This document shows positions 2,696-26,540 of a DNA stretch of 64,000 bases, in pieces. The number at the start of each line of letters is the position of its first letter. The first letter of the stretch is position 1. The DNA is from an uncultured Alphaproteobacteria bacterium. GTDB lineage: Bacteria > Pseudomonadota > Alphaproteobacteria > CAAHEQ01 > UBA3637. The translations under genes and the position numbers were made by a program. The notes beneath the pieces were generated by a model. The model was given only the letters and a program-made list of their open reading frames with translations. It was not told the origin of the DNA and did not search any database. The DNA lies in assembly GCA_937888725.1 (NCBI GenBank), contig CALARE010000005.1:2884-66883 (forward strand), written 5' to 3'.

Positions 2696-4780
2696 ATGCG
2701 TCCTGAATGCTTAAATGGTTTGTTTTGTCAGGTATCTCAAATAAGTGGGATCGGGCCAAAGACATCTAAATTGATAGAAAATCTATGTGGCCCATATATT
2801 TTAAATGTACTATTTTCACTTCCTGTTGGTGTTCACTATCGGCCTAATTATGAATATCCCTCTCAAATTAAAGAAGGGCAATTGGGGACGATATTGTTTG
2901 AGGTTGAAAAACACATAAAGCCAGCAAAAAAGAGTATCCCATACAAAATAAAGGGAAATTTTAAAGGCACTGCTGTTGAGTTAGTTTTTTTTAATTACCA
3001 CTCAGATTATTTGCAAAAAAAATTACAAGAAGGGCAATCTTATTTTATTTCTGGTAAGATAGAAAAATTTTTAGGGAAATGGGGTATTTTGCACCCTGAT
3101 TATATTGTAAAGCAATTAAATGAGATACCTGAATATGAGGCGATATATCCTTTAACAGCGGGTTTGTCGGGTAAAGTTCTTTCAAAAGCGATTATGTATG
3201 CTAAAAATTGCCTGCCTAATTTACCAGAATGGCAAGATAGTGCGTTTATGAAAGAACAAGGTTTTTTTGATTGGAAAACATCTGTCATAAAAGCACACCA
3301 ACCACAAAAAAGTCAGGATTTAGAACCAGGTAATGTGATTCGAAAAAGATTGGCATATGATGAGTTGTTGGCAAATCAATTAGCTTTATTTTTGGCAAGA
3401 GCACACCATAAACGTCAAAAGGGTATTTCATTTGTTAAAGAAAAAAATTATGAAGAATGTGTTTTAACAAATTTACCGTTTGAATTAACGACAGCACAAC
3501 ATCGAGTTATTGAAGAGATAAGGTCAGATTTATTATCTTCTGATAAAATGATAAGATTACTACAAGGTGATGTTGGTAGTGGAAAAACAGTTGTTGCCTT
3601 GGCAAGTTTGTTGATGGCGGTTGATGCAGGATATCAAGGTGTTATTATGGCACCAACGGATATTTTAGCAGGACAACATTTGGCATCATTTGAAAAAATG
3701 TTAAAAGGTACAGACGTTTCAATCGCTTTGTTGACTGGTCGCGAAAAAGGTAAAAAAAGAGAGCTTATTCTCGAAAAATTAGCCATGGGTGAAATCGATA
3801 TTTTAATCGGGACTCATGCTGTTTTTACACAAGATGTTTCTTTTAAAAAATTAGGTTTGGTTGTTATTGACGAACAACATAAATTCGGTGTTCAACAGCG
3901 TTTAGCTTTAACAAAAAAGCAAAAAGGTGTTAACTTGCTTGTTATGACAGCGACACCAATTCCGCGTACACTAGCTTTAACAACGTATGGTGATATGGAT
4001 ATTTCATTGCTTGATGAAAAACCTAAAAACAGAATTCCAATTGAAACAAAAGTTATTTCAAGTGAAAAAGTACAAGAAGTAATTGAAAAACTTTTTCAAA
4101 AAATAAAGACAGCTGAAGAAAAAATGCAGGTTTATTGGGTTTGTCCTTTGGTTCAAGAATCAGAAAAATCAGATTTGATTGCTGCAGAAAAAAGATATGA
4201 AACTTTATCTTCTGTTTTTAAAGATAAGGTTGGCCTTGTTCATGGTAAAATGAAAGGTTGTGATAAAGATGCTGTGATGGAAAAATTTAAATCAGGCGAG
4301 CTTGATGTTCTAGTTTCAACAACTGTCATCGAAGTTGGTGTTGATGTTCCAAGTGCATCCGTTATTGTAATTGAAGGAGCTGAGCGATTTGGTCTTGCAG
4401 GGTTACATCAATTAAGGGGTCGTGTTGGCCGAGGTGGCGGTAAATCTATCTGTCTATTATTACATGGGAAAAACTTATCACAAACGGCAATTGCAAGATT
4501 AAAAGTTATGAGGGAAAGTGAAAATGGATTTGTTATTGCAGAAGAAGATTTGCGTTTGAGGGGTGCTGGTGAATTATTAGGCGTTCGTCAAAGTGGTTTG
4601 CCTGTATTTAAGATGGCTGATTTGCAAATTCATTATCATTTGCTTACAACAGCTGCACAAGATGCCAAAACGATTTTAACATTGGATCCAAATTTGCAAA
4701 CAGAAAGAGGAAAAGCATTGCGAATTTTGTTGTATTTATTTCAAAAAGAAACTGAAATTTTAACATTGAAAGCGGGGTAA
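2696..4780 (+). CDS. recG: ATP-dependent DNA helicase RecG
   Basis: 694 aa. Helicase motifs LLQGDVGSGKTVVA (Walker A), VIDEQHKFGV (DEQH box), MTATPIPRTLA and QLRGRVGRG. The size and domain order are typical of RecG. Confidence 0.95.
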   Translation: MRPECLNGLFCQVSQISGIGPKTSKLIENLCGPYILNVLFSLPVGVHYRPNYEYPSQIKEGQLGTILFEVEKHIKPAKKSIPYKIKGNFKGTAVELVFFNYHSDYLQKKLQEGQSYFISGKIEKFLGKWGILHPDYIVKQLNEIPEYEAIYPLTAGLSGKVLSKAIMYAKNCLPNLPEWQDSAFMKEQGFFDWKTSVIKAHQPQKSQDLEPGNVIRKRLAYDELLANQLALFLARAHHKRQKGISFVKEKNYEECVLTNLPFELTTAQHRVIEEIRSDLLSSDKMIRLLQGDVGSGKTVVALASLLMAVDAGYQGVIMAPTDILAGQHLASFEKMLKGTDVSIALLTGREKGKKRELILEKLAMGEIDILIGTHAVFTQDVSFKKLGLVVIDEQHKFGVQQRLALTKKQKGVNLLVMTATPIPRTLALTTYGDMDISLLDEKPKNRIPIETKVISSEKVQEVIEKLFQKIKTAEEKMQVYWVCPLVQESEKSDLIAAEKRYETLSSVFKDKVGLVHGKMKGCDKDAVMEKFKSGELDVLVSTTVIEVGVDVPSASVIVIEGAERFGLAGLHQLRGRVGRGGGKSICLLLHGKNLSQTAIARLKVMRESENGFVIAEEDLRLRGAGELLGVRQSGLPVFKMADLQIHYHLLTTAAQDAKTILTLDPNLQTERGKALRILLYLFQKETEILTLKAG

Positions 4781-20040: not shown

Positions 20041-20125
20041 GCGGTTATGGCGGAATTGGTAGACGCGCAGCGTTGAGGTCGCTGTGGAGAGATCCGTGGA
20101 AGTTCGAGTCTTCTTAACCGCACCA
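20041..20125 (+). tRNA. tRNA-Leu (anticodon GAG), CCA encoded
   Basis: Hand-folded cloverleaf. Acceptor GCGGTTA/TAACCGC. Anticodon stem CAGCG/CGCTG with loop TTGAGGT. Long variable arm GGA-gaga-TCC. T-loop TTCGAGT. 3' CCA. Confidence 0.9.
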
Positions 20126-20304: not shown

Positions 20305-20766
20305 TTAGTTTTGTTTGATGCTGAAACTAACCTTGTTGTTTGAAGCACAATCATTTGTTCCACCAACAATTGAACCAAATGCATTACAAAGTTTATTATC
20401 ATTGAATGTTACACTAATTGTAACTTCGTCTGCAGCTAGACTTCCACCAGCACTGATACCTGTAACTTTCATCTCTGTGACGCCACTTGGAGGGTTGCCC
20501 AAACCTGCACTTGATGGTGTCATATTTTTTGTAGCAGAAGAACAAACTGATGAATCAGCATTGTCTGAGCCACTATTTAACATTTCATTTTGACAAGCTG
20601 AATATGCAACGAGAGCCAATTTTGCAGCTGTATCAGCAACGCCGTTTGCACGGTGACGACGCATTGAAAGTGTGTAACCAGCGATACCGCCGACTGATAA
20701 AACACCGATAATAGCTAAAACGCCAAGCATTTCAACCATTGAACGACCAGATTCCAATTTTTTCAT
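20305..20766 (-). CDS. Prepilin-type N-terminal domain protein (type IV pilin-like), paralog 2
   Basis: MKKLESG|RSMVEMLGVLAIIGVLSVGGIAGY. Several Cys residues in the C-terminal half could form disulfide pairs. Confidence 0.8.
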   Translation of the reverse strand: MKKLESGRSMVEMLGVLAIIGVLSVGGIAGYTLSMRRHRANGVADTAAKLALVAYSACQNEMLNSGSDNADSSVCSSATKNMTPSSAGLGNPPSGVTEMKVTGISAGGSLAADEVTISVTFNDNKLCNAFGSIVGGTNDCASNNKVSFSIKQN

Positions 20767-20956: not shown

Positions 20957-21008
20957 ATTTTAGATTTTGTGGAAAAGTTTGCATTTTCTAAAATGAAAGC
21001 CAGTGTTT
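20957..21008. repeat. 52-bp direct repeat, copy 1 (right after the ATPase stop codon)
   Basis: ATTTTAGATTTTGTGGAAAAGTTTGCATTTTCTAAAATGAAAGCCAGTGTTT. Contains an 8-bp inverted repeat, ATTTTAGA ... TCTAAAAT. Differs at one position from the copy at 22342-22393. Confidence 0.85.
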
Positions 21009-22261
21009 TAGAAATCTAAACTTTCAGGAGATAAAAGAAAATCTTTTAATCCAACTGTTAAAATACCGTTTTCATTATAGTATGGTTTTTTGCTACCGCC
21101 AATAATAATGATTTTTTTAAATCCATCGGGTATGTTAAGAAGTGATTTTTCCTCTTGTTTTTGTTTTTCTATTGTTGATAGCTGATATGCAGATTGAATA
21201 TAATATCGTTTACTACCAAAATTAACAACAAAATCAACCTCTACTTTTTTTGATTGTTTTGTTCCGAGTTTATTTTTCTCAACAATTGAAACCTCGCCAA
21301 CATCTACTTGATAATCTCGGATAATAAGTTCATTGTAAATCACATTTTCCATTAAATGGGTTTCTTCTTGTTGCCTAAAATTGATTTCAGCATTTCTTAA
21401 CCCAATGTCTGTAAAGTAATATTTTGCAGGTGTATTAATATATTTTTTCCCTTTTATGTCATATCGTAACACTTTGTTTATTAAAAAGGCATCTTCAAAA
21501 AATGATAAATAATTTTTAATAGTTGGTGCGGATAATTCCAACTTTTTATTACTTTTGAATGTGTCGGAGAGTTTTTGTGGGTTTGTTAATGATCCAATAT
21601 TGGATGCTATTATTGCAAGCAATTCTTCTAATTCTTCAGAGTTTTGGATTTTATTTCGTGCAATAATATCTTTTAAATATGTTTCTTTGAATAAGGTTTG
21701 TAGATATTTTGCTTTTTCAACCTCAGTATTAAATTTAAATAATGCGGGCATGCCACCATATACACTATATTCACTCCACGCTTCATCCCAATCCACATTT
21801 TTGTGTGCATAATATTCAGCAAAGCTTAATGGATGAATTCGAATTTCATCTCCTCGACCTCTAAATTCTGTTACGATGTCAGTAGATAAAAATTTAGAAT
21901 TACTGCCTGTAACGTAAACATCTAAATTTTTAACATGTAAAAATCCGTTTAAAACACTTTCAAAATCTTCCATCATTTGTACTTCGTCAAGAAGGAGGTA
22001 ATACATATCCTTGTCAAGCATTTGTTCTTTGACATATTTAATACATTCGTCTGGATTTCGATATTTTTCTTGCTCTCTCGTATCTAATTGGATGCAAATA
22101 ATATGATCATTTTTTGTGCCTGTTTCTAACAAATGGTTTTTAAATAATTCAAATAACATATATGATTTTCCACAACGGCGAATCCCGCTAATAATCTTAA
22201 TAAAGCCATTATGTTTATGACTGATAAGTTTATTTAAATAATAATCTCTTTTTATTTCCAT
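21008..22261 (-). CDS. AAA+ ATPase, COG1373/DUF4143-like
   Basis: Walker A GIRRCGKSYML and Walker B YYLLLDEVQ. The MEIKRDYYLNKL start is typical of this family. I placed the start at 22261 (GGAGG RBS 5 nt upstream). The track start at 22336 reads through repeat copy 2. Confidence 0.8.
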   Translation of the reverse strand: MEIKRDYYLNKLISHKHNGFIKIISGIRRCGKSYMLFELFKNHLLETGTKNDHIICIQLDTREQEKYRNPDECIKYVKEQMLDKDMYYLLLDEVQMMEDFESVLNGFLHVKNLDVYVTGSNSKFLSTDIVTEFRGRGDEIRIHPLSFAEYYAHKNVDWDEAWSEYSVYGGMPALFKFNTEVEKAKYLQTLFKETYLKDIIARNKIQNSEELEELLAIIASNIGSLTNPQKLSDTFKSNKKLELSAPTIKNYLSFFEDAFLINKVLRYDIKGKKYINTPAKYYFTDIGLRNAEINFRQQEETHLMENVIYNELIIRDYQVDVGEVSIVEKNKLGTKQSKKVEVDFVVNFGSKRYYIQSAYQLSTIEKQKQEEKSLLNIPDGFKKIIIIGGSKKPYYNENGILTVGLKDFLLSPESLDF

Positions 22262-22270
22262 AATCGCCTC

Positions 22271-22312
22271 CATTTTAGATTTTGTAGAAAAGTTGTCATT
22301 TTCTAAAATGAT
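22271..22312. repeat. Degenerate partial repeat copy 2, immediately upstream of the ATPase RBS
   Basis: CATTTTAGATTTTGTAGAAAAGTTGTCATTTTCTAAAATGA. Keeps the ATTTTAGA/TCTAAAAT inverted arms. Confidence 0.75.
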
Positions 22313-22341
22313 AAAACGAATATGACCTTTTGTCAAGATGT

Positions 22342-22393
22342 ATTTTAGATTTTGTGGAAAAGTTTGTATTTTCTAAAATGAAAGCCAGTGTTT
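22342..22393. repeat. 52-bp direct repeat, copy 3
   Basis: ATTTTAGATTTTGTGGAAAAGTTTGTATTTTCTAAAATGAAAGCCAGTGTTT. One mismatch relative to copy 1. Confidence 0.85.
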
Positions 22394-22490
22394 ATCTGGT
22401 TTTTTATTTCTTTATATCAGCCATCAAACCATGAATATCATATTCATCAGAATAATAAAATAACATACAAAGCGTTTTAAAAAGGAAATA

Positions 22491-22536
22491 AAAAATTACC
22501 CTCAAAAATTATCATAATTTTGAGAGTAATTTTTTA
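22491..22536 (-). terminator. Terminator downstream of pgk
   Basis: TTACCCTCAAAA ... TTTTGAGAGTAA hairpin with one mismatch, flanked by A and T runs. Confidence 0.5.
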
Positions 22537-22554: not shown

Positions 22555-23742
22555 TTATTTTTCTAAAATGGCAACGCCTGGGAGGGATTTACCTTCCATC
22601 CATTCAAGGAAAGCACCACCAGCGGCTGAAACATATGTTAAATTAGGTTCAACACCTGCTTTTTTAAGTGCTGAAACAGTATCACCACCACCAGCAACAG
22701 ATGTAAGTTTCCCTTCTTTTGTGAGTTTTGCAACCTCAACGGCAATTTCATTTGTTCCTTTATCAAAAGGTTTTAATTCAAAAGCACCGACAGGACCATT
22801 CCAAATGAGCGTTTTTGATTGTTTAATTACATCAACAAATGCTTGTACCGATTTTTCACCAATGTCAAGTAAAACTTTCCCAGCTGGAACAGCATCAGCG
22901 TCTGATGTGTGCGGTGTTTGCCCTTCACCAAATTGGTCTGCCCAAACAAGGTCAACAGGAAGAACGATTTTGCAATTTCCAGCATTATCCATAATTTCTT
23001 TAGCAGTTGAAATCATGCCTGTTTCAACAAGGGAGCCTTCACCCATTGGAATGCCCTTGGCAGCCAAGAATGTGTGAGCCATACCTCCACCAATGCAAAG
23101 GTAATCAACTTTTTTAACAAGGTTGCCGAGTAAATCAAGTTTTGTTGAAACTTTTGAACCACCAACAACAGCAACAGCTGGGCGTTCTGGATTGCCAAGT
23201 GCTTTATCAAGAGCTTCTAATTCTTCTTGCATCAGGCGACCAGCTGCTCTTGGTAATAAGTGAGCCATGCCTTCTGTTGATGCGTGAGCACGGTGTGCTG
23301 TTGAAAAGGCGTCATCAACATAAATATCGATACCACTTGCGAGTTGTTCTGCAAAAGTTTTATCATTTTTTTCTTCTCCAGCGTAGTAGCGTAGGTTTTC
23401 AAGTAAAACGACGTCCCCTGTGTTCATGTTGCGAATAATGGTATCTCTTTCATTGCCGATACAATCGTTCACAAATGTTACTTTTAAACCACTTGCTTGT
23501 TCTAAAGCAGGAGCTAAAAATGCCATTGAAAATTCAGGATTTTTTTCACCTTTTGGACGACCAAAGTGAGAAGCAACAACAACCTTTGCACCTTTTTCAA
23601 CAAGTTCTTTCAGAGTTGGAACAAAGCGGTCAATGCGTGTTGTGTCTGTGATTTTACCTTCTTTTGCAGGGACGTTTAAGTCTGCACGAACAAAAACAGT
23701 CTTTCCGTTAAAGTCAAAATCATTTAATGTTTTGTATGTCAT
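22555..23742 (-). CDS. pgk: Phosphoglycerate kinase
   Basis: 395 aa. Contains RADLNVP, ASHFGRPKG, GGGDT and GGGAFLEW, all classic Pgk motifs. Confidence 0.97.
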   Translation of the reverse strand: MTYKTLNDFDFNGKTVFVRADLNVPAKEGKITDTTRIDRFVPTLKELVEKGAKVVVASHFGRPKGEKNPEFSMAFLAPALEQASGLKVTFVNDCIGNERDTIIRNMNTGDVVLLENLRYYAGEEKNDKTFAEQLASGIDIYVDDAFSTAHRAHASTEGMAHLLPRAAGRLMQEELEALDKALGNPERPAVAVVGGSKVSTKLDLLGNLVKKVDYLCIGGGMAHTFLAAKGIPMGEGSLVETGMISTAKEIMDNAGNCKIVLPVDLVWADQFGEGQTPHTSDADAVPAGKVLLDIGEKSVQAFVDVIKQSKTLIWNGPVGAFELKPFDKGTNEIAVEVAKLTKEGKLTSVAGGGDTVSALKKAGVEPNLTYVSAAGGAFLEWMEGKSLPGVAILEK

Positions 23743-25040: not shown

Positions 25041-26540
25041 ATGAATAGTGATTTTAAGGATAATCAAGAGGATTTAAAAGAAGAAAAGACCGTTCTTTCT
25101 TCTCCTGAATATTTAGACCCTTTTTATAAGTCTTCTGATAAAAAGAAGAAAAAAAAGAAAAAGCCCTTTCCAACAGACCCAGATGATCCTGAAACGGATG
25201 ATTTTGATGAAGAAGATGACGACGATGATGATACGGAAACATCTAGTACATCAGATGATGGGGAAGATGAAAATGAATTAAAACAAGAAGAAAAGAAACA
25301 AGAAACAACATTTAAAGACCCTTTTTTAATTGCAAAACAAATGCAAAATGGGCCTTTAAAACAGCAACCTAATAATCCAGAAAAACGCCAAAGAAGTCCG
25401 CTTCAAAAGTTTTTTGATGTACTTCTTTATGGTGTTGAAGGGGCTAAACTTAGAAATGGTGATTTGCAAGTTAAAAATTCAATGTTTGATGAATTGTTAT
25501 TAGGTCTTGGCTTTAAGGCATATCTAAAAGATGTTCTTTTAAATAATCAATTGATTAAGCATTTGAAACAAAAGGCAAATAATCAAGATAATCCCTCATT
25601 TATTAAGCGAATTTTTAAGAATTTAAAGAAAAAAATATTTAAAGATTCAGAATTAAAATCTACGTTATCCCAAGTGAAAAAAAAGCTTGAAACAGCTGAG
25701 AAAAAAACAACACTTATTTCAACTATTCAAGAAAAAAGTGATATTTCAATGCAACAGGTTAAAAAAGAAGATGTTTTACAACGTTTAAAAACACCACAAC
25801 GTCCCGCACCTGTTGGGAAAAAAGCCCCTGAGAAAGATAAGGTTGTATTAACAAAAGAAGAAGCAAAAAAAATTTTGTTGGCTGTTGAGGAAGAAGAAAA
25901 ACGCTTAAAAGATCAAGAACGTCGTTTGGTCATTAATCAAGAAAAAGAAAACACGGCACTTCAATTAAAATTACAAGAAAATATTAAGGAACAAAGGCAA
26001 ATCAAAGCTCGTACAGCACACGAAGCAACTGTGTCAGCACAAAAAGATGTAGCAATGGCCGAGCGTGCTCAAATGATGGCAAACAAAGATATAGCTCAAG
26101 CACAAAAAGCTGCTCTTTTATCAATGCAAAGAGATGTGGCAACTAATCAAGCTGAAAAAGATTATGCGATGCAAGCTCAAATGCAAAAAAATCAAGTGCA
26201 AGAAAAAGAGATGAAAATAGACACAGAACAACTTGGTCAAGCAATGGCTCAAATTGCATCTGTGGCCCTAGGTTCTAAGATGGGAAAGCCAAATCCACCC
26301 AAGTTGCCACAAGCACTGGATGCTTTGTTGTCACAGGGGAATGTGCAATCCAAAGAAGCTTCTGACAAACAGACGGTTGCTGAAACGGTCCGTTTGGATG
26401 AAAAGGGACGCACGGAACCTGTGCCTTCTCAACAAAATGAGGTGCATCAAAGTGCGTTGGCTAAGGCTGCTCAGACATATAATGATAAATCTGATATGCA
26501 ATCTATGCAAAATCAAAATAACAAACAAGATGGCAAATAA
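25041..26540 (+). CDS. Hypothetical low-complexity protein with an acidic/poly-Lys N-terminus and a Q/A/M-rich coiled-coil C-terminus
   Basis: DKKKKKKKKPFPTDPDDPETDDFDEEDDDDDD. Later repeats of the type KDVAMAERAQMMANKDIAQAQKAALLSMQRDVATNQAEKDYAMQAQMQ. No signal peptide or enzymatic motif seen. Confidence 0.5.
   Translation: MNSDFKDNQEDLKEEKTVLSSPEYLDPFYKSSDKKKKKKKKPFPTDPDDPETDDFDEEDDDDDDTETSSTSDDGEDENELKQEEKKQETTFKDPFLIAKQMQNGPLKQQPNNPEKRQRSPLQKFFDVLLYGVEGAKLRNGDLQVKNSMFDELLLGLGFKAYLKDVLLNNQLIKHLKQKANNQDNPSFIKRIFKNLKKKIFKDSELKSTLSQVKKKLETAEKKTTLISTIQEKSDISMQQVKKEDVLQRLKTPQRPAPVGKKAPEKDKVVLTKEEAKKILLAVEEEEKRLKDQERRLVINQEKENTALQLKLQENIKEQRQIKARTAHEATVSAQKDVAMAERAQMMANKDIAQAQKAALLSMQRDVATNQAEKDYAMQAQMQKNQVQEKEMKIDTEQLGQAMAQIASVALGSKMGKPNPPKLPQALDALLSQGNVQSKEASDKQTVAETVRLDEKGRTEPVPSQQNEVHQSALAKAAQTYNDKSDMQSMQNQNNKQDGK

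Follow-up and report, generated by a model that had tools for sequence, protein, structure and literature searches.

A PDC-S01 ATPase-nuclease gene with its promoter between private palindromes is probably a one-gene cassette bracketed by an insertion footprint

We analyzed a 64,000-nt stretch of DNA from an uncultured alphaproteobacterium (assembly GCA_937888725.1, contig CALARE010000005.1, positions 2,884 to 66,883; hereafter the window, whose coordinates are used below), in which a gene for an ATPase of the PDC-S01/COG1373 family is bracketed by a 52-nt direct repeat. The segment 20957-22393 is probably (at a probability of about 0.6) a self-contained one-gene cassette of this family, with palindromes as operators and the 52-nt bracket as an insertion or duplication footprint. 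The cassette carries its own promoter between two private copies of a 38-nt palindrome, a layout common to homologues in many phyla, and a long direct repeat around the gene is a recurrent and statistically specific trait of the PDC-S01 family. What appears to be new is the joint occurrence, around a one-gene ATPase-nuclease cassette, of private palindromes that flank the promoter at a fixed spacing, an insert whose end is the stop codon, and long duplications of variable length. The papers found to mention DUF4143 contained no description of paired promoter palindromes, of bracketing direct repeats or of their combination.

The 52-nt repeat, ATTTTAGATTTTGTGGAAAAGTTTG(C/T)ATTTTCTAAAATGAAAGCCAGTGTTT, occurred at 20957-21008 and at 22342-22393 in copies identical at 51 of 52 positions, which enclosed a 1.33-kb insert with one gene and no mobility gene. 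A degenerate third copy at 22272-22323 was 79% identical over 52 nt, and matched at 35 of 38 positions over its dyad part (22272-22309). Every copy contained the arms ATTTTAGA and TCTAAAAT with 22 nt between them. An earlier note on this DNA had reported the bracketing pair with its single mismatch, the 8-bp inverted arms 22 bp apart in each copy, and a stop codon abutting the first copy, and all of these were borne out, the last as a 1-nt overlap. The third copy was degenerate and lay directly upstream of the ribosome-binding site (RBS) as the note had said, but its coordinates were those given above and not 22271-22312. The number of matches to the 52-nt repeat expected from shuffled sequence was 0. 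The search of the genome and its relatives that the note had proposed, and in which a common dispersed element would have spoken against a single-cassette insertion, found three copies in the assembly (1.68 Mb, 34.7% G+C, 98 contigs), all at the ATPase gene, and no match with up to 3 mismatches in 40 relatives, 20 species of the same genus among them. The parts of the segment and its edge were as follows.

22489..22536, minus strand: pgk terminator hairpin, host sequence at the edge of the conserved pgk region
22342..22393, minus strand: upstream 52-nt direct-repeat copy, made of the distal 38-nt palindrome (22342-22379) and a 14-nt flank (22380-22393)
22308..22336, minus strand: sigma-70-type promoter TTGACA-17 nt-TATCAT, an 11/12 match and the top one in the region, between the two upstream palindromes
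22272..22309, minus strand: proximal palindrome, 35/38 identical to the others, running from inside the -10 box over the predicted transcription start and 5' untranslated region (UTR) to the RBS
21008..22261, minus strand: gene for a 417-aa ATPase-nuclease of the PDC-S01/COG1373 family (AAA_14 and DUF4143)
20957..21008, minus strand: downstream 52-nt direct-repeat copy, made of a 14-nt flank (20995-21008) with a 1-nt stop-codon overlap and a palindrome (20957-20994)

Read along the minus strand, the pgk terminator was followed by a small hairpin whose second half was the 14-nt flank (AAACACTGGCTTTC) of the upstream copy and whose other half was the adjoining CCAGAT, then by the distal palindrome, 5 nt, and the promoter. 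The proximal palindrome extended from inside the -10 box to the GGAGG of the RBS (22267-22271), which it touched, and after the ATG, the open reading frame (ORF) and the TAA, the 14 nt and the palindrome began again from the last A of the stop codon. The promoter is thus clamped by the two upstream copies, 70 bp apart, one lying just 5' of the -35 box and the other reaching from the -10 box across the start site and leader. The limits of the cassette are 22393 to 21008, or 22379 to 21008 if the flank is excluded. On the plus strand, 22380-22404 formed a terminator-like hairpin with a T-run, antisense to the ATPase gene and built from the 14-nt repeat flank and adjoining host sequence; it would halt antisense transcription heading toward pgk.

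A scan for homologues with one genome per species gave 80 loci at 53-87% identity. The hosts were gut and rumen Alphaproteobacteria, Lachnospiraceae and other Clostridia, Bacilli, Prevotella and other Bacteroidales, Treponema, Akkermansia, Thermoguttaceae, Flexilinea and Anaeroplasma. Nearly all homologous loci had an imperfect palindrome of 38-42 nt just 5' of the RBS, and most had a second copy upstream. The palindrome sequence was specific to each locus, while the two copies within a locus agreed. A strict perfect-arm palindrome finder and a dyad-centre finder under-detected these imperfect palindromes, and the pairs were therefore scored by a repeat-pair measure against a conservative mismatched-locus control. 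The pair exceeded the 99th percentile of the control at 35 of 82 loci, with a start-to-start spacing of 69-77 bp (mode 75). By a looser criterion it was present at 45 of 82, with a promoter between the copies in 42 of the 45; 35 of these promoters were sigma-70-like (9/12 or better) and 7 were of the Bacteroidota TAnnTTTG type. The 38-nt dyad is the usual cis-element of the PDC-S01 family, and neither an attachment (att) site of a tRNA-targeting element nor a repetitive extragenic palindromic (REP) sequence.

The closest relative of the gene, L032 (87% identical in amino acids, in another genome), had the same arms, ATTTTAGAAAAT...AAAATCTAAAAT, around a different centre. DNA similarity between the two loci ran from the left edge of the distal palindrome to the stop codon, and since it was confined to that span, it delimits the transferable unit as distal palindrome to stop. 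Two strains of the same species as the window (L120 and L121, from Logan assemblies, about 99% identical) had all three repeat copies. The 9 copies of the three strains had identical arms, but a centre and a 14-nt flank that varied at several times the local rate. The differences between copies, up to 5 in 52 positions, were confined to these two parts, and within each strain the distal copy had the same variant as the 3' copy (GC in one strain, GT in the other), a sign of concerted evolution or gene conversion.

The encoded protein matched AAA_14 (PF13173, 2.3e-32) and DUF4143 (PF13635, 4e-19) and was a full-length match to the PADLOC PDC-S01 model PDLC04787 (E 3.9e-116, residues 3-411), in agreement with the AAA+ DUF4143-type ATPase that the earlier note had recognized. 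Walker A was at G26-S33, Walker B at D92-E93, the winged helix at about 205-285 and a PD-(D/E)XK-like domain at about 300-360. Among 71 homologues the ATPase residues G31, K32, D92 and E93 and the acidic residues E305, D320, E341 and D343 of the nuclease-like domain were invariant. An AlphaFold2 model built on these 71 homologues had a predicted local distance difference test score of 88 and a predicted template modelling score of 0.89. Foldseek gave archaeal AAA+ ATPases (2fna, 2qen), origin-DNA-bound Orc1/Cdc6 (2qby) and STAND ATPases as the best matches of its N-terminal part, and Can2/Cdn1/Bax1-type nucleases as fold matches of its C-terminal part. A profile search against the PDB sequences gave no match. 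Pfam and the literature (PMC3424549) assign DUF4143 to the PD-(D/E)XK superfamily. The protein combines an AAA+ ATPase, a winged helix and a PD-(D/E)XK nuclease-like domain.

We infer that the palindromes are putative operators through which the cassette's own winged-helix protein would repress its own gene. The factor that reads the palindromes should be the encoded protein, because nothing but the cassette travels between phyla.

The gene clearly appears to be horizontally mobile, because orthologues stood in differing contexts and homologues of 53-60% identity were spread across phyla, in Bacillota, Bacteroidota, Spirochaetota, Verrucomicrobiota, Planctomycetota and others. Two species of the same genus had orthologues (73% identity in G001, 70% in G010) in quite different neighbourhoods, and the genome itself contained two distant paralogues (33-34% identity). 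PDC-S01 homologues were also found on plasmids and phage-like contigs.

Direct repeats around the gene were sought between the 350 nt on the upstream side of each homologue and the 350 nt on its downstream side. Of 78 loci, 18 had one with a score of 17-140; mismatched locus pairs reached 12 at most. By gapped alignment these repeats were 24-146 nt long and 77-100% identical. A score of at least 17 was obtained for 16 of 70 real loci and 1 of 128 controls, the controls being identically arranged windows displaced by one gene length (Fisher p = 2e-7). In 13 of the 18 loci with a repeat, the repeated DNA was host flank specific to the locus, with no palindrome; at L075, for instance, it was the final 113 nt of a seryl-tRNA synthetase gene, and at L092, L069 and in G001 it was 3' gene ends with terminators. 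It included a palindrome copy in five loci (the locus in the window, L034, L046, L033 and L097). The upstream copy usually ended just 5' of the distal palindrome, and the start of the downstream copy lay no more than 5 nt from the stop codon in roughly half of the loci with a repeat; in several, including the window, G001, L075 and L095, the first bases of the repeat completed the stop codon.

Empty sites were found for two homologous loci. For the G001 orthologue, the relative G007 had a contiguous empty site, 88% identical over 800 nt, in which the repeat occurred once. The G001 repeat, of 31-43 nt, consisted of the terminator of the upstream gene and ATTTTA, and the cassette started with its distal palindrome, whose first six bases were the same ATTTTA as the target, a junction microhomology. 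For L081 (56% identity), two related species, G085 and G077, had the left flank, one copy of a 143-nt repeat and the right flank contiguously, and both palindromes lay inside the inserted DNA. A third relative, G080, held at the same intergenic site another DUF4143 ATPase, 32% identical, with a repeat of about 50 nt, and the last codons and stop of its ORF (GAAGAATAA; L129 1490-1502) were target sequence. Because the empty sites of the relatives hold a single repeat copy in both cases, the cassettes were inserted with a long duplication, and the G001 and L081 cassettes are textbook cases of insertion with long target duplication. At L075 the relatives lacked synteny at the locus, and the comparison was therefore uninformative for an empty site; identity look-ups of the L075, L081 and L097 flanks were unproductive for empty sites.

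We also observed that the L081 and G080 cassettes, with their 32% identical ATPases, shared the purM/SASP intergenic site in related species. Their left ends (L081 2790-2830 and L129 110-150) were near-identical over about 33 nt (AGAAAAAATATTA.AAAAAG.AAT.GCCTAAA) and were joined to different target positions.

How the bracket in the window could have formed is proposed as follows. Operators placed 5' of the -35 box and from the -10 box into the leader would together give tight autorepression of a potentially toxic nuclease, and the 52-nt bracket would be the footprint of the same insertion or duplication process as at the other loci, which here took in the distal operator and 14 nt of host flank. 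The cassette may have inserted beside a solo palindrome left at the site by an earlier cassette; such site turnover appears to happen, because one site was re-used by two cassettes in relatives of G043. Alternatively, a circle excised between the repeats may have reintegrated by recombination within the 52 nt, or a slightly longer-than-unit, terminally redundant copy may have been integrated. Recombination between the two 52-nt copies could delete the gene precisely and leave one copy. The insertion may be made by the nuclease that the cassette encodes, or by recombination and repair functions of the host.

A more far-reaching version, which we consider doubtful, is that PDC-S01 genes are autonomous one-gene mobile elements whose protein recognizes the private palindromes in two roles, operator and element end, and makes staggered cuts. 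Hairpin- or terminator-rich intergenic targets would then be cut with widely staggered nicks, giving duplications of 24-146 nt and an insert that ends at the stop codon.

Several results weigh against reading the segment as an inserted cassette with operator palindromes. About 77% of the homologous loci had no bracketing repeat, and catalysis, mobility and defence are only putative for every PDC-S01 member. The repeat in the window contains a cassette-borne palindrome, which plain target duplication does not predict: 38 of its 52 nt are a palindrome of the cassette type, cassette-borne in L032, G001 and L081, and the 14-nt flank alone looks host-derived. The earlier note had suggested an insertion with a duplicated att-like site or target, and had looked to an empty site between pgk and the pilin gene as the check. 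The family-wide bracketing repeats and the single-copy empty sites of the G001 orthologue and L081 favoured the insertion, but a classical att/integrase system was not supported, and no empty counterpart of the locus in the window was found in 19 genus relatives or in the two conspecific strains (L120 and L121), both occupied identically. The DNA downstream of pgk in the 19 relatives was unrelated, and its first 1.5 kb contained neither a pilin gene nor an ATPase gene nor a tRNA. Scans of metagenome contigs for the exact pattern of the pilin-side flank and of the palindrome gave no match. Identity look-ups of the pgk and pilin-like proteins of the window returned nothing on record, and those of its ATPase, the L120 pgk and the L120 pilin-like protein returned occupied strains only.

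The operator role, the note's other suggestion, fared in a similarly divided way. The palindrome pair flanked the promoter at about 75 bp across phyla, but a test for co-variation of exposed recognition-helix residues with palindrome similarity was negative (partial r 0.058, below the null mean), and positions 245/246/249/250/253/256 did no better than random variable positions. These positions, the exposed face of the third helix of the winged helix, were among the most variable parts of the protein, while the basic wing (R266-F283) was invariant although the palindromes differ widely. Sliding-window co-variation between protein and palindrome was weak, with a maximum partial rho of 0.16 at residues 158-188.

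Four other explanations were weighed against the cassette with operators and an insertion footprint. All three copies may be regulatory, the downstream one serving as an additional, third operator in a DNA loop with those at the promoter (as in gal, deo or ara), and the repeat would then be silent on mobility. The arms invariant in 9 copies of three strains, the joint change of the distal and 3' copies, and the recurrence of a palindrome copy directly after the stop codon in L034, L046, L097 and L033 agree with this, and AAA+ oligomers could bridge several sites. It is nevertheless unlikely, as 14 nt of non-palindromic flank are repeated too, the 3' palindrome is missing in most loci, and the repeat is palindrome-free host flank in 13 of the 18 repeat-bearing loci and a demonstrated duplicated target in two cases. 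Near-identical dyad sites bracketing the gene could also be attC-, dif- or pdif-like sites for a recombinase acting in trans, by which the cassette enters and leaves as a circle, and a 2,630-bp circle of Prevotella nigrescens indeed consists of such a cassette and flank. Recombination between a pair of paralogous methylase segments accounts for that circle, however, and there was no integrase nearby and no GTTRRRY-type core. The palindromes differ by locus, and a host recombinase could not follow them across phyla; the two standard copies flank the promoter and not the cassette; and the junctions of the proven insertions map beyond the palindromes or to their edge, with 31-143-nt duplications. 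Recombination sites of this kind are accordingly an improbable explanation.

Folding of the copies as RNA or DNA would give hairpins for control of translation or stability in the 5' UTR and a 3' terminator or insulator, kept similar by gene conversion. The 3' and distal copies folded better than shuffles (z about -3) and the proximal copy in the leader, adjoining the RBS, did so weakly (z -1.8, 10 of 200 shuffles as good); the inner part in many loci was a G+C-rich hairpin between A/T runs. Here the stems were weak A/U ones (-6 to -9.5 kcal/mol) without a subsequent U-run, and the distal copy, 5' of the -35 box, is not transcribed from the cassette promoter, so that the palindromes probably act at the DNA level; the fixed 75-bp spacing around the promoter points the same way, and we give the hairpins little chance as the main explanation. 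A dispersed element of the REP or miniature inverted-repeat transposable element (MITE) kind, or the att site of an island targeting tRNA-Leu, has only the palindromic look and a tRNA 0.8 kb away in its favour, and its probability is close to nil. Three copies at one gene, instead of many dispersed ones, and none in 40 relatives rule out REP sequences, REPINs and MITEs. A tRNA-targeting integrative element is ruled out as well: tRNA-Leu(GAG) at 20041-20125 is 832 nt from the nearest repeat copy with the pilin-like gene between, its sequence is unrelated to the repeat, and there is no integrase. The link to this tRNA that the earlier note had drawn was thus not supported.

The position of the cassette between the pgk terminator and the pilin-like gene was confirmed by the coordinates. 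On the pgk side lay pgk itself (22555-23742), and the neighbouring genes were pgk, gap, a pseudouridine synthase, an OmpA-like protein, a bPH_2 protein, an SLT transglycosylase, the pilin-like gene and tRNA-Leu(GAG); no recombinase, transposase or integrase was found among them, as the note had stated for integrases and transposases. The pilin-like ORF (20305-20766, minus strand) had a prepilin-type N-terminus, GRSMVEMLGVLAIIGVL, no Pfam or NCBIfam match, and no counterpart downstream of pgk in any genus relative. A 499-aa ORF adjoining gap (25041-26540, plus strand) had no Pfam match.

Further observations were made at other DUF4143 loci. At L006 (contig C39 of G000, the genome of the window), a DUF4143 paralogue was flanked on both sides by C-rich, nearly G-free low-complexity tracts of 180-190 nt (1160-1340 and 2812-3005, in the same orientation; for example GCCCGCTAGCCACCCTCACACCCGCACCCC) in a genome of 35% G+C, and two promoter-bearing 41-nt direct repeats lay just 5' of the gene. 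At L005 (G000 contig C91), a third DUF4143 paralogue adjoined a tRNA gene, whose 3' end and terminator (45 nt) were duplicated 157 bp away (1053-1097 and 1210-1254); the duplication looked like an att scar, and the ATPase gene was not bracketed by it. The L109 cassette (about 2360-2460 and 3855-3945) was located at the beginning of a gene with a duplication of its first 90 nt, and directly downstream of the 3' end of another DUF4143 gene. The Prevotella nigrescens DSM 13386 circle mentioned above (NZ_CP133466.1, L123), a 2,630-bp 'plasmid' without a rep gene, consisted of a PDC-S01 cassette and a partial Eco57I-like methylase gene. It was 100% identical to a segment of FDAARGOS_1486 (L124 3455-7155), in which the cassette lay between two direct methylase paralogues, near an Mpi-family invertase. 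NZ_CP133466.1 may be an excised circle or an assembly product, and shows that repeat-flanked cassettes can occur as circles, at least in assemblies.

PDC-S01 has been ranked as the fourth most common prokaryotic 'defence' system and as the most frequent individual defence locus in rumen genomes and metagenome-assembled genomes (PMC12988326, PMC13356809), and its anti-phage role is a candidate one, with validation pending (PMC12988326). For a family counted among the most abundant bacterial and archaeal "defence systems", the conserved cis-architecture and the insertion footprint are testable handles, and the palindromes are candidate DNA ligands of the PDC-S01 protein. If PDC-S01 genes were autonomous elements, selfish spread would account for their abundance in 'defence islands' no less than immunity, or in place of it. 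The footprint adds a further nuclease family to the restriction-modification genes for which insertion with long target duplication has been described, and hints at a shared nuclease-linked route of gene mobility. It is also a caution that not every PDC-S01 match should be taken as immunity.

Among known systems, the cassette is closest in its protein to PDC-S01/COG1373, with the same AAA_14 and DUF4143 architecture, a full-length match, a single gene and a sporadic distribution. PDC-S01 has been described in the literature as a protein family only, found by 'guilt by embedding'; the palindromes and bracketing repeats reported here are additional. Insertion with long target duplication is a term coined for restriction-modification gene complexes (Nobusato et al. 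2000; Furuta et al. 2010, PMC2853133), and its criteria in Furuta et al. (2010) are a direct repeat of >30 bp, an insert of <20 kb without a mobility gene, a repeat unique in the genome, a single-copy empty site, and a repeat that is target DNA. The locus in the window had a 52-nt repeat, a 1.33-kb insert and a genome-unique repeat. It resembles these inserts as a nuclease-encoding unit without a mobility gene inside such a repeat, with empty sites verified for the G001 orthologue and L081. The restriction-modification inserts carry a restriction-modification pair as cargo, whereas here there is one ATPase-nuclease gene; the right insert end is the stop codon, private palindromes are carried along, and the repeat in the window includes one of them.

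With integron attC cassettes the segment shares a compact one-gene unit bounded by imperfect palindromes and found in many hosts. Unlike an integron cassette it has its own 11/12 promoter and stands as a single unit, with no integrase, attI, R'/R'' core or array, and two of the palindromes flank the promoter and not the 3' end; an integron cassette was thus ruled out. The likeness to archaeal Orc1/Cdc6 lies in the AAA+ ATPase with a winged helix (Foldseek 2qby) and in inverted repeats that flank an A+T-rich interval by the protein's own gene. There is no sign of replication here; the protein has an extra PD-(D/E)XK domain, and the interval holds a promoter.

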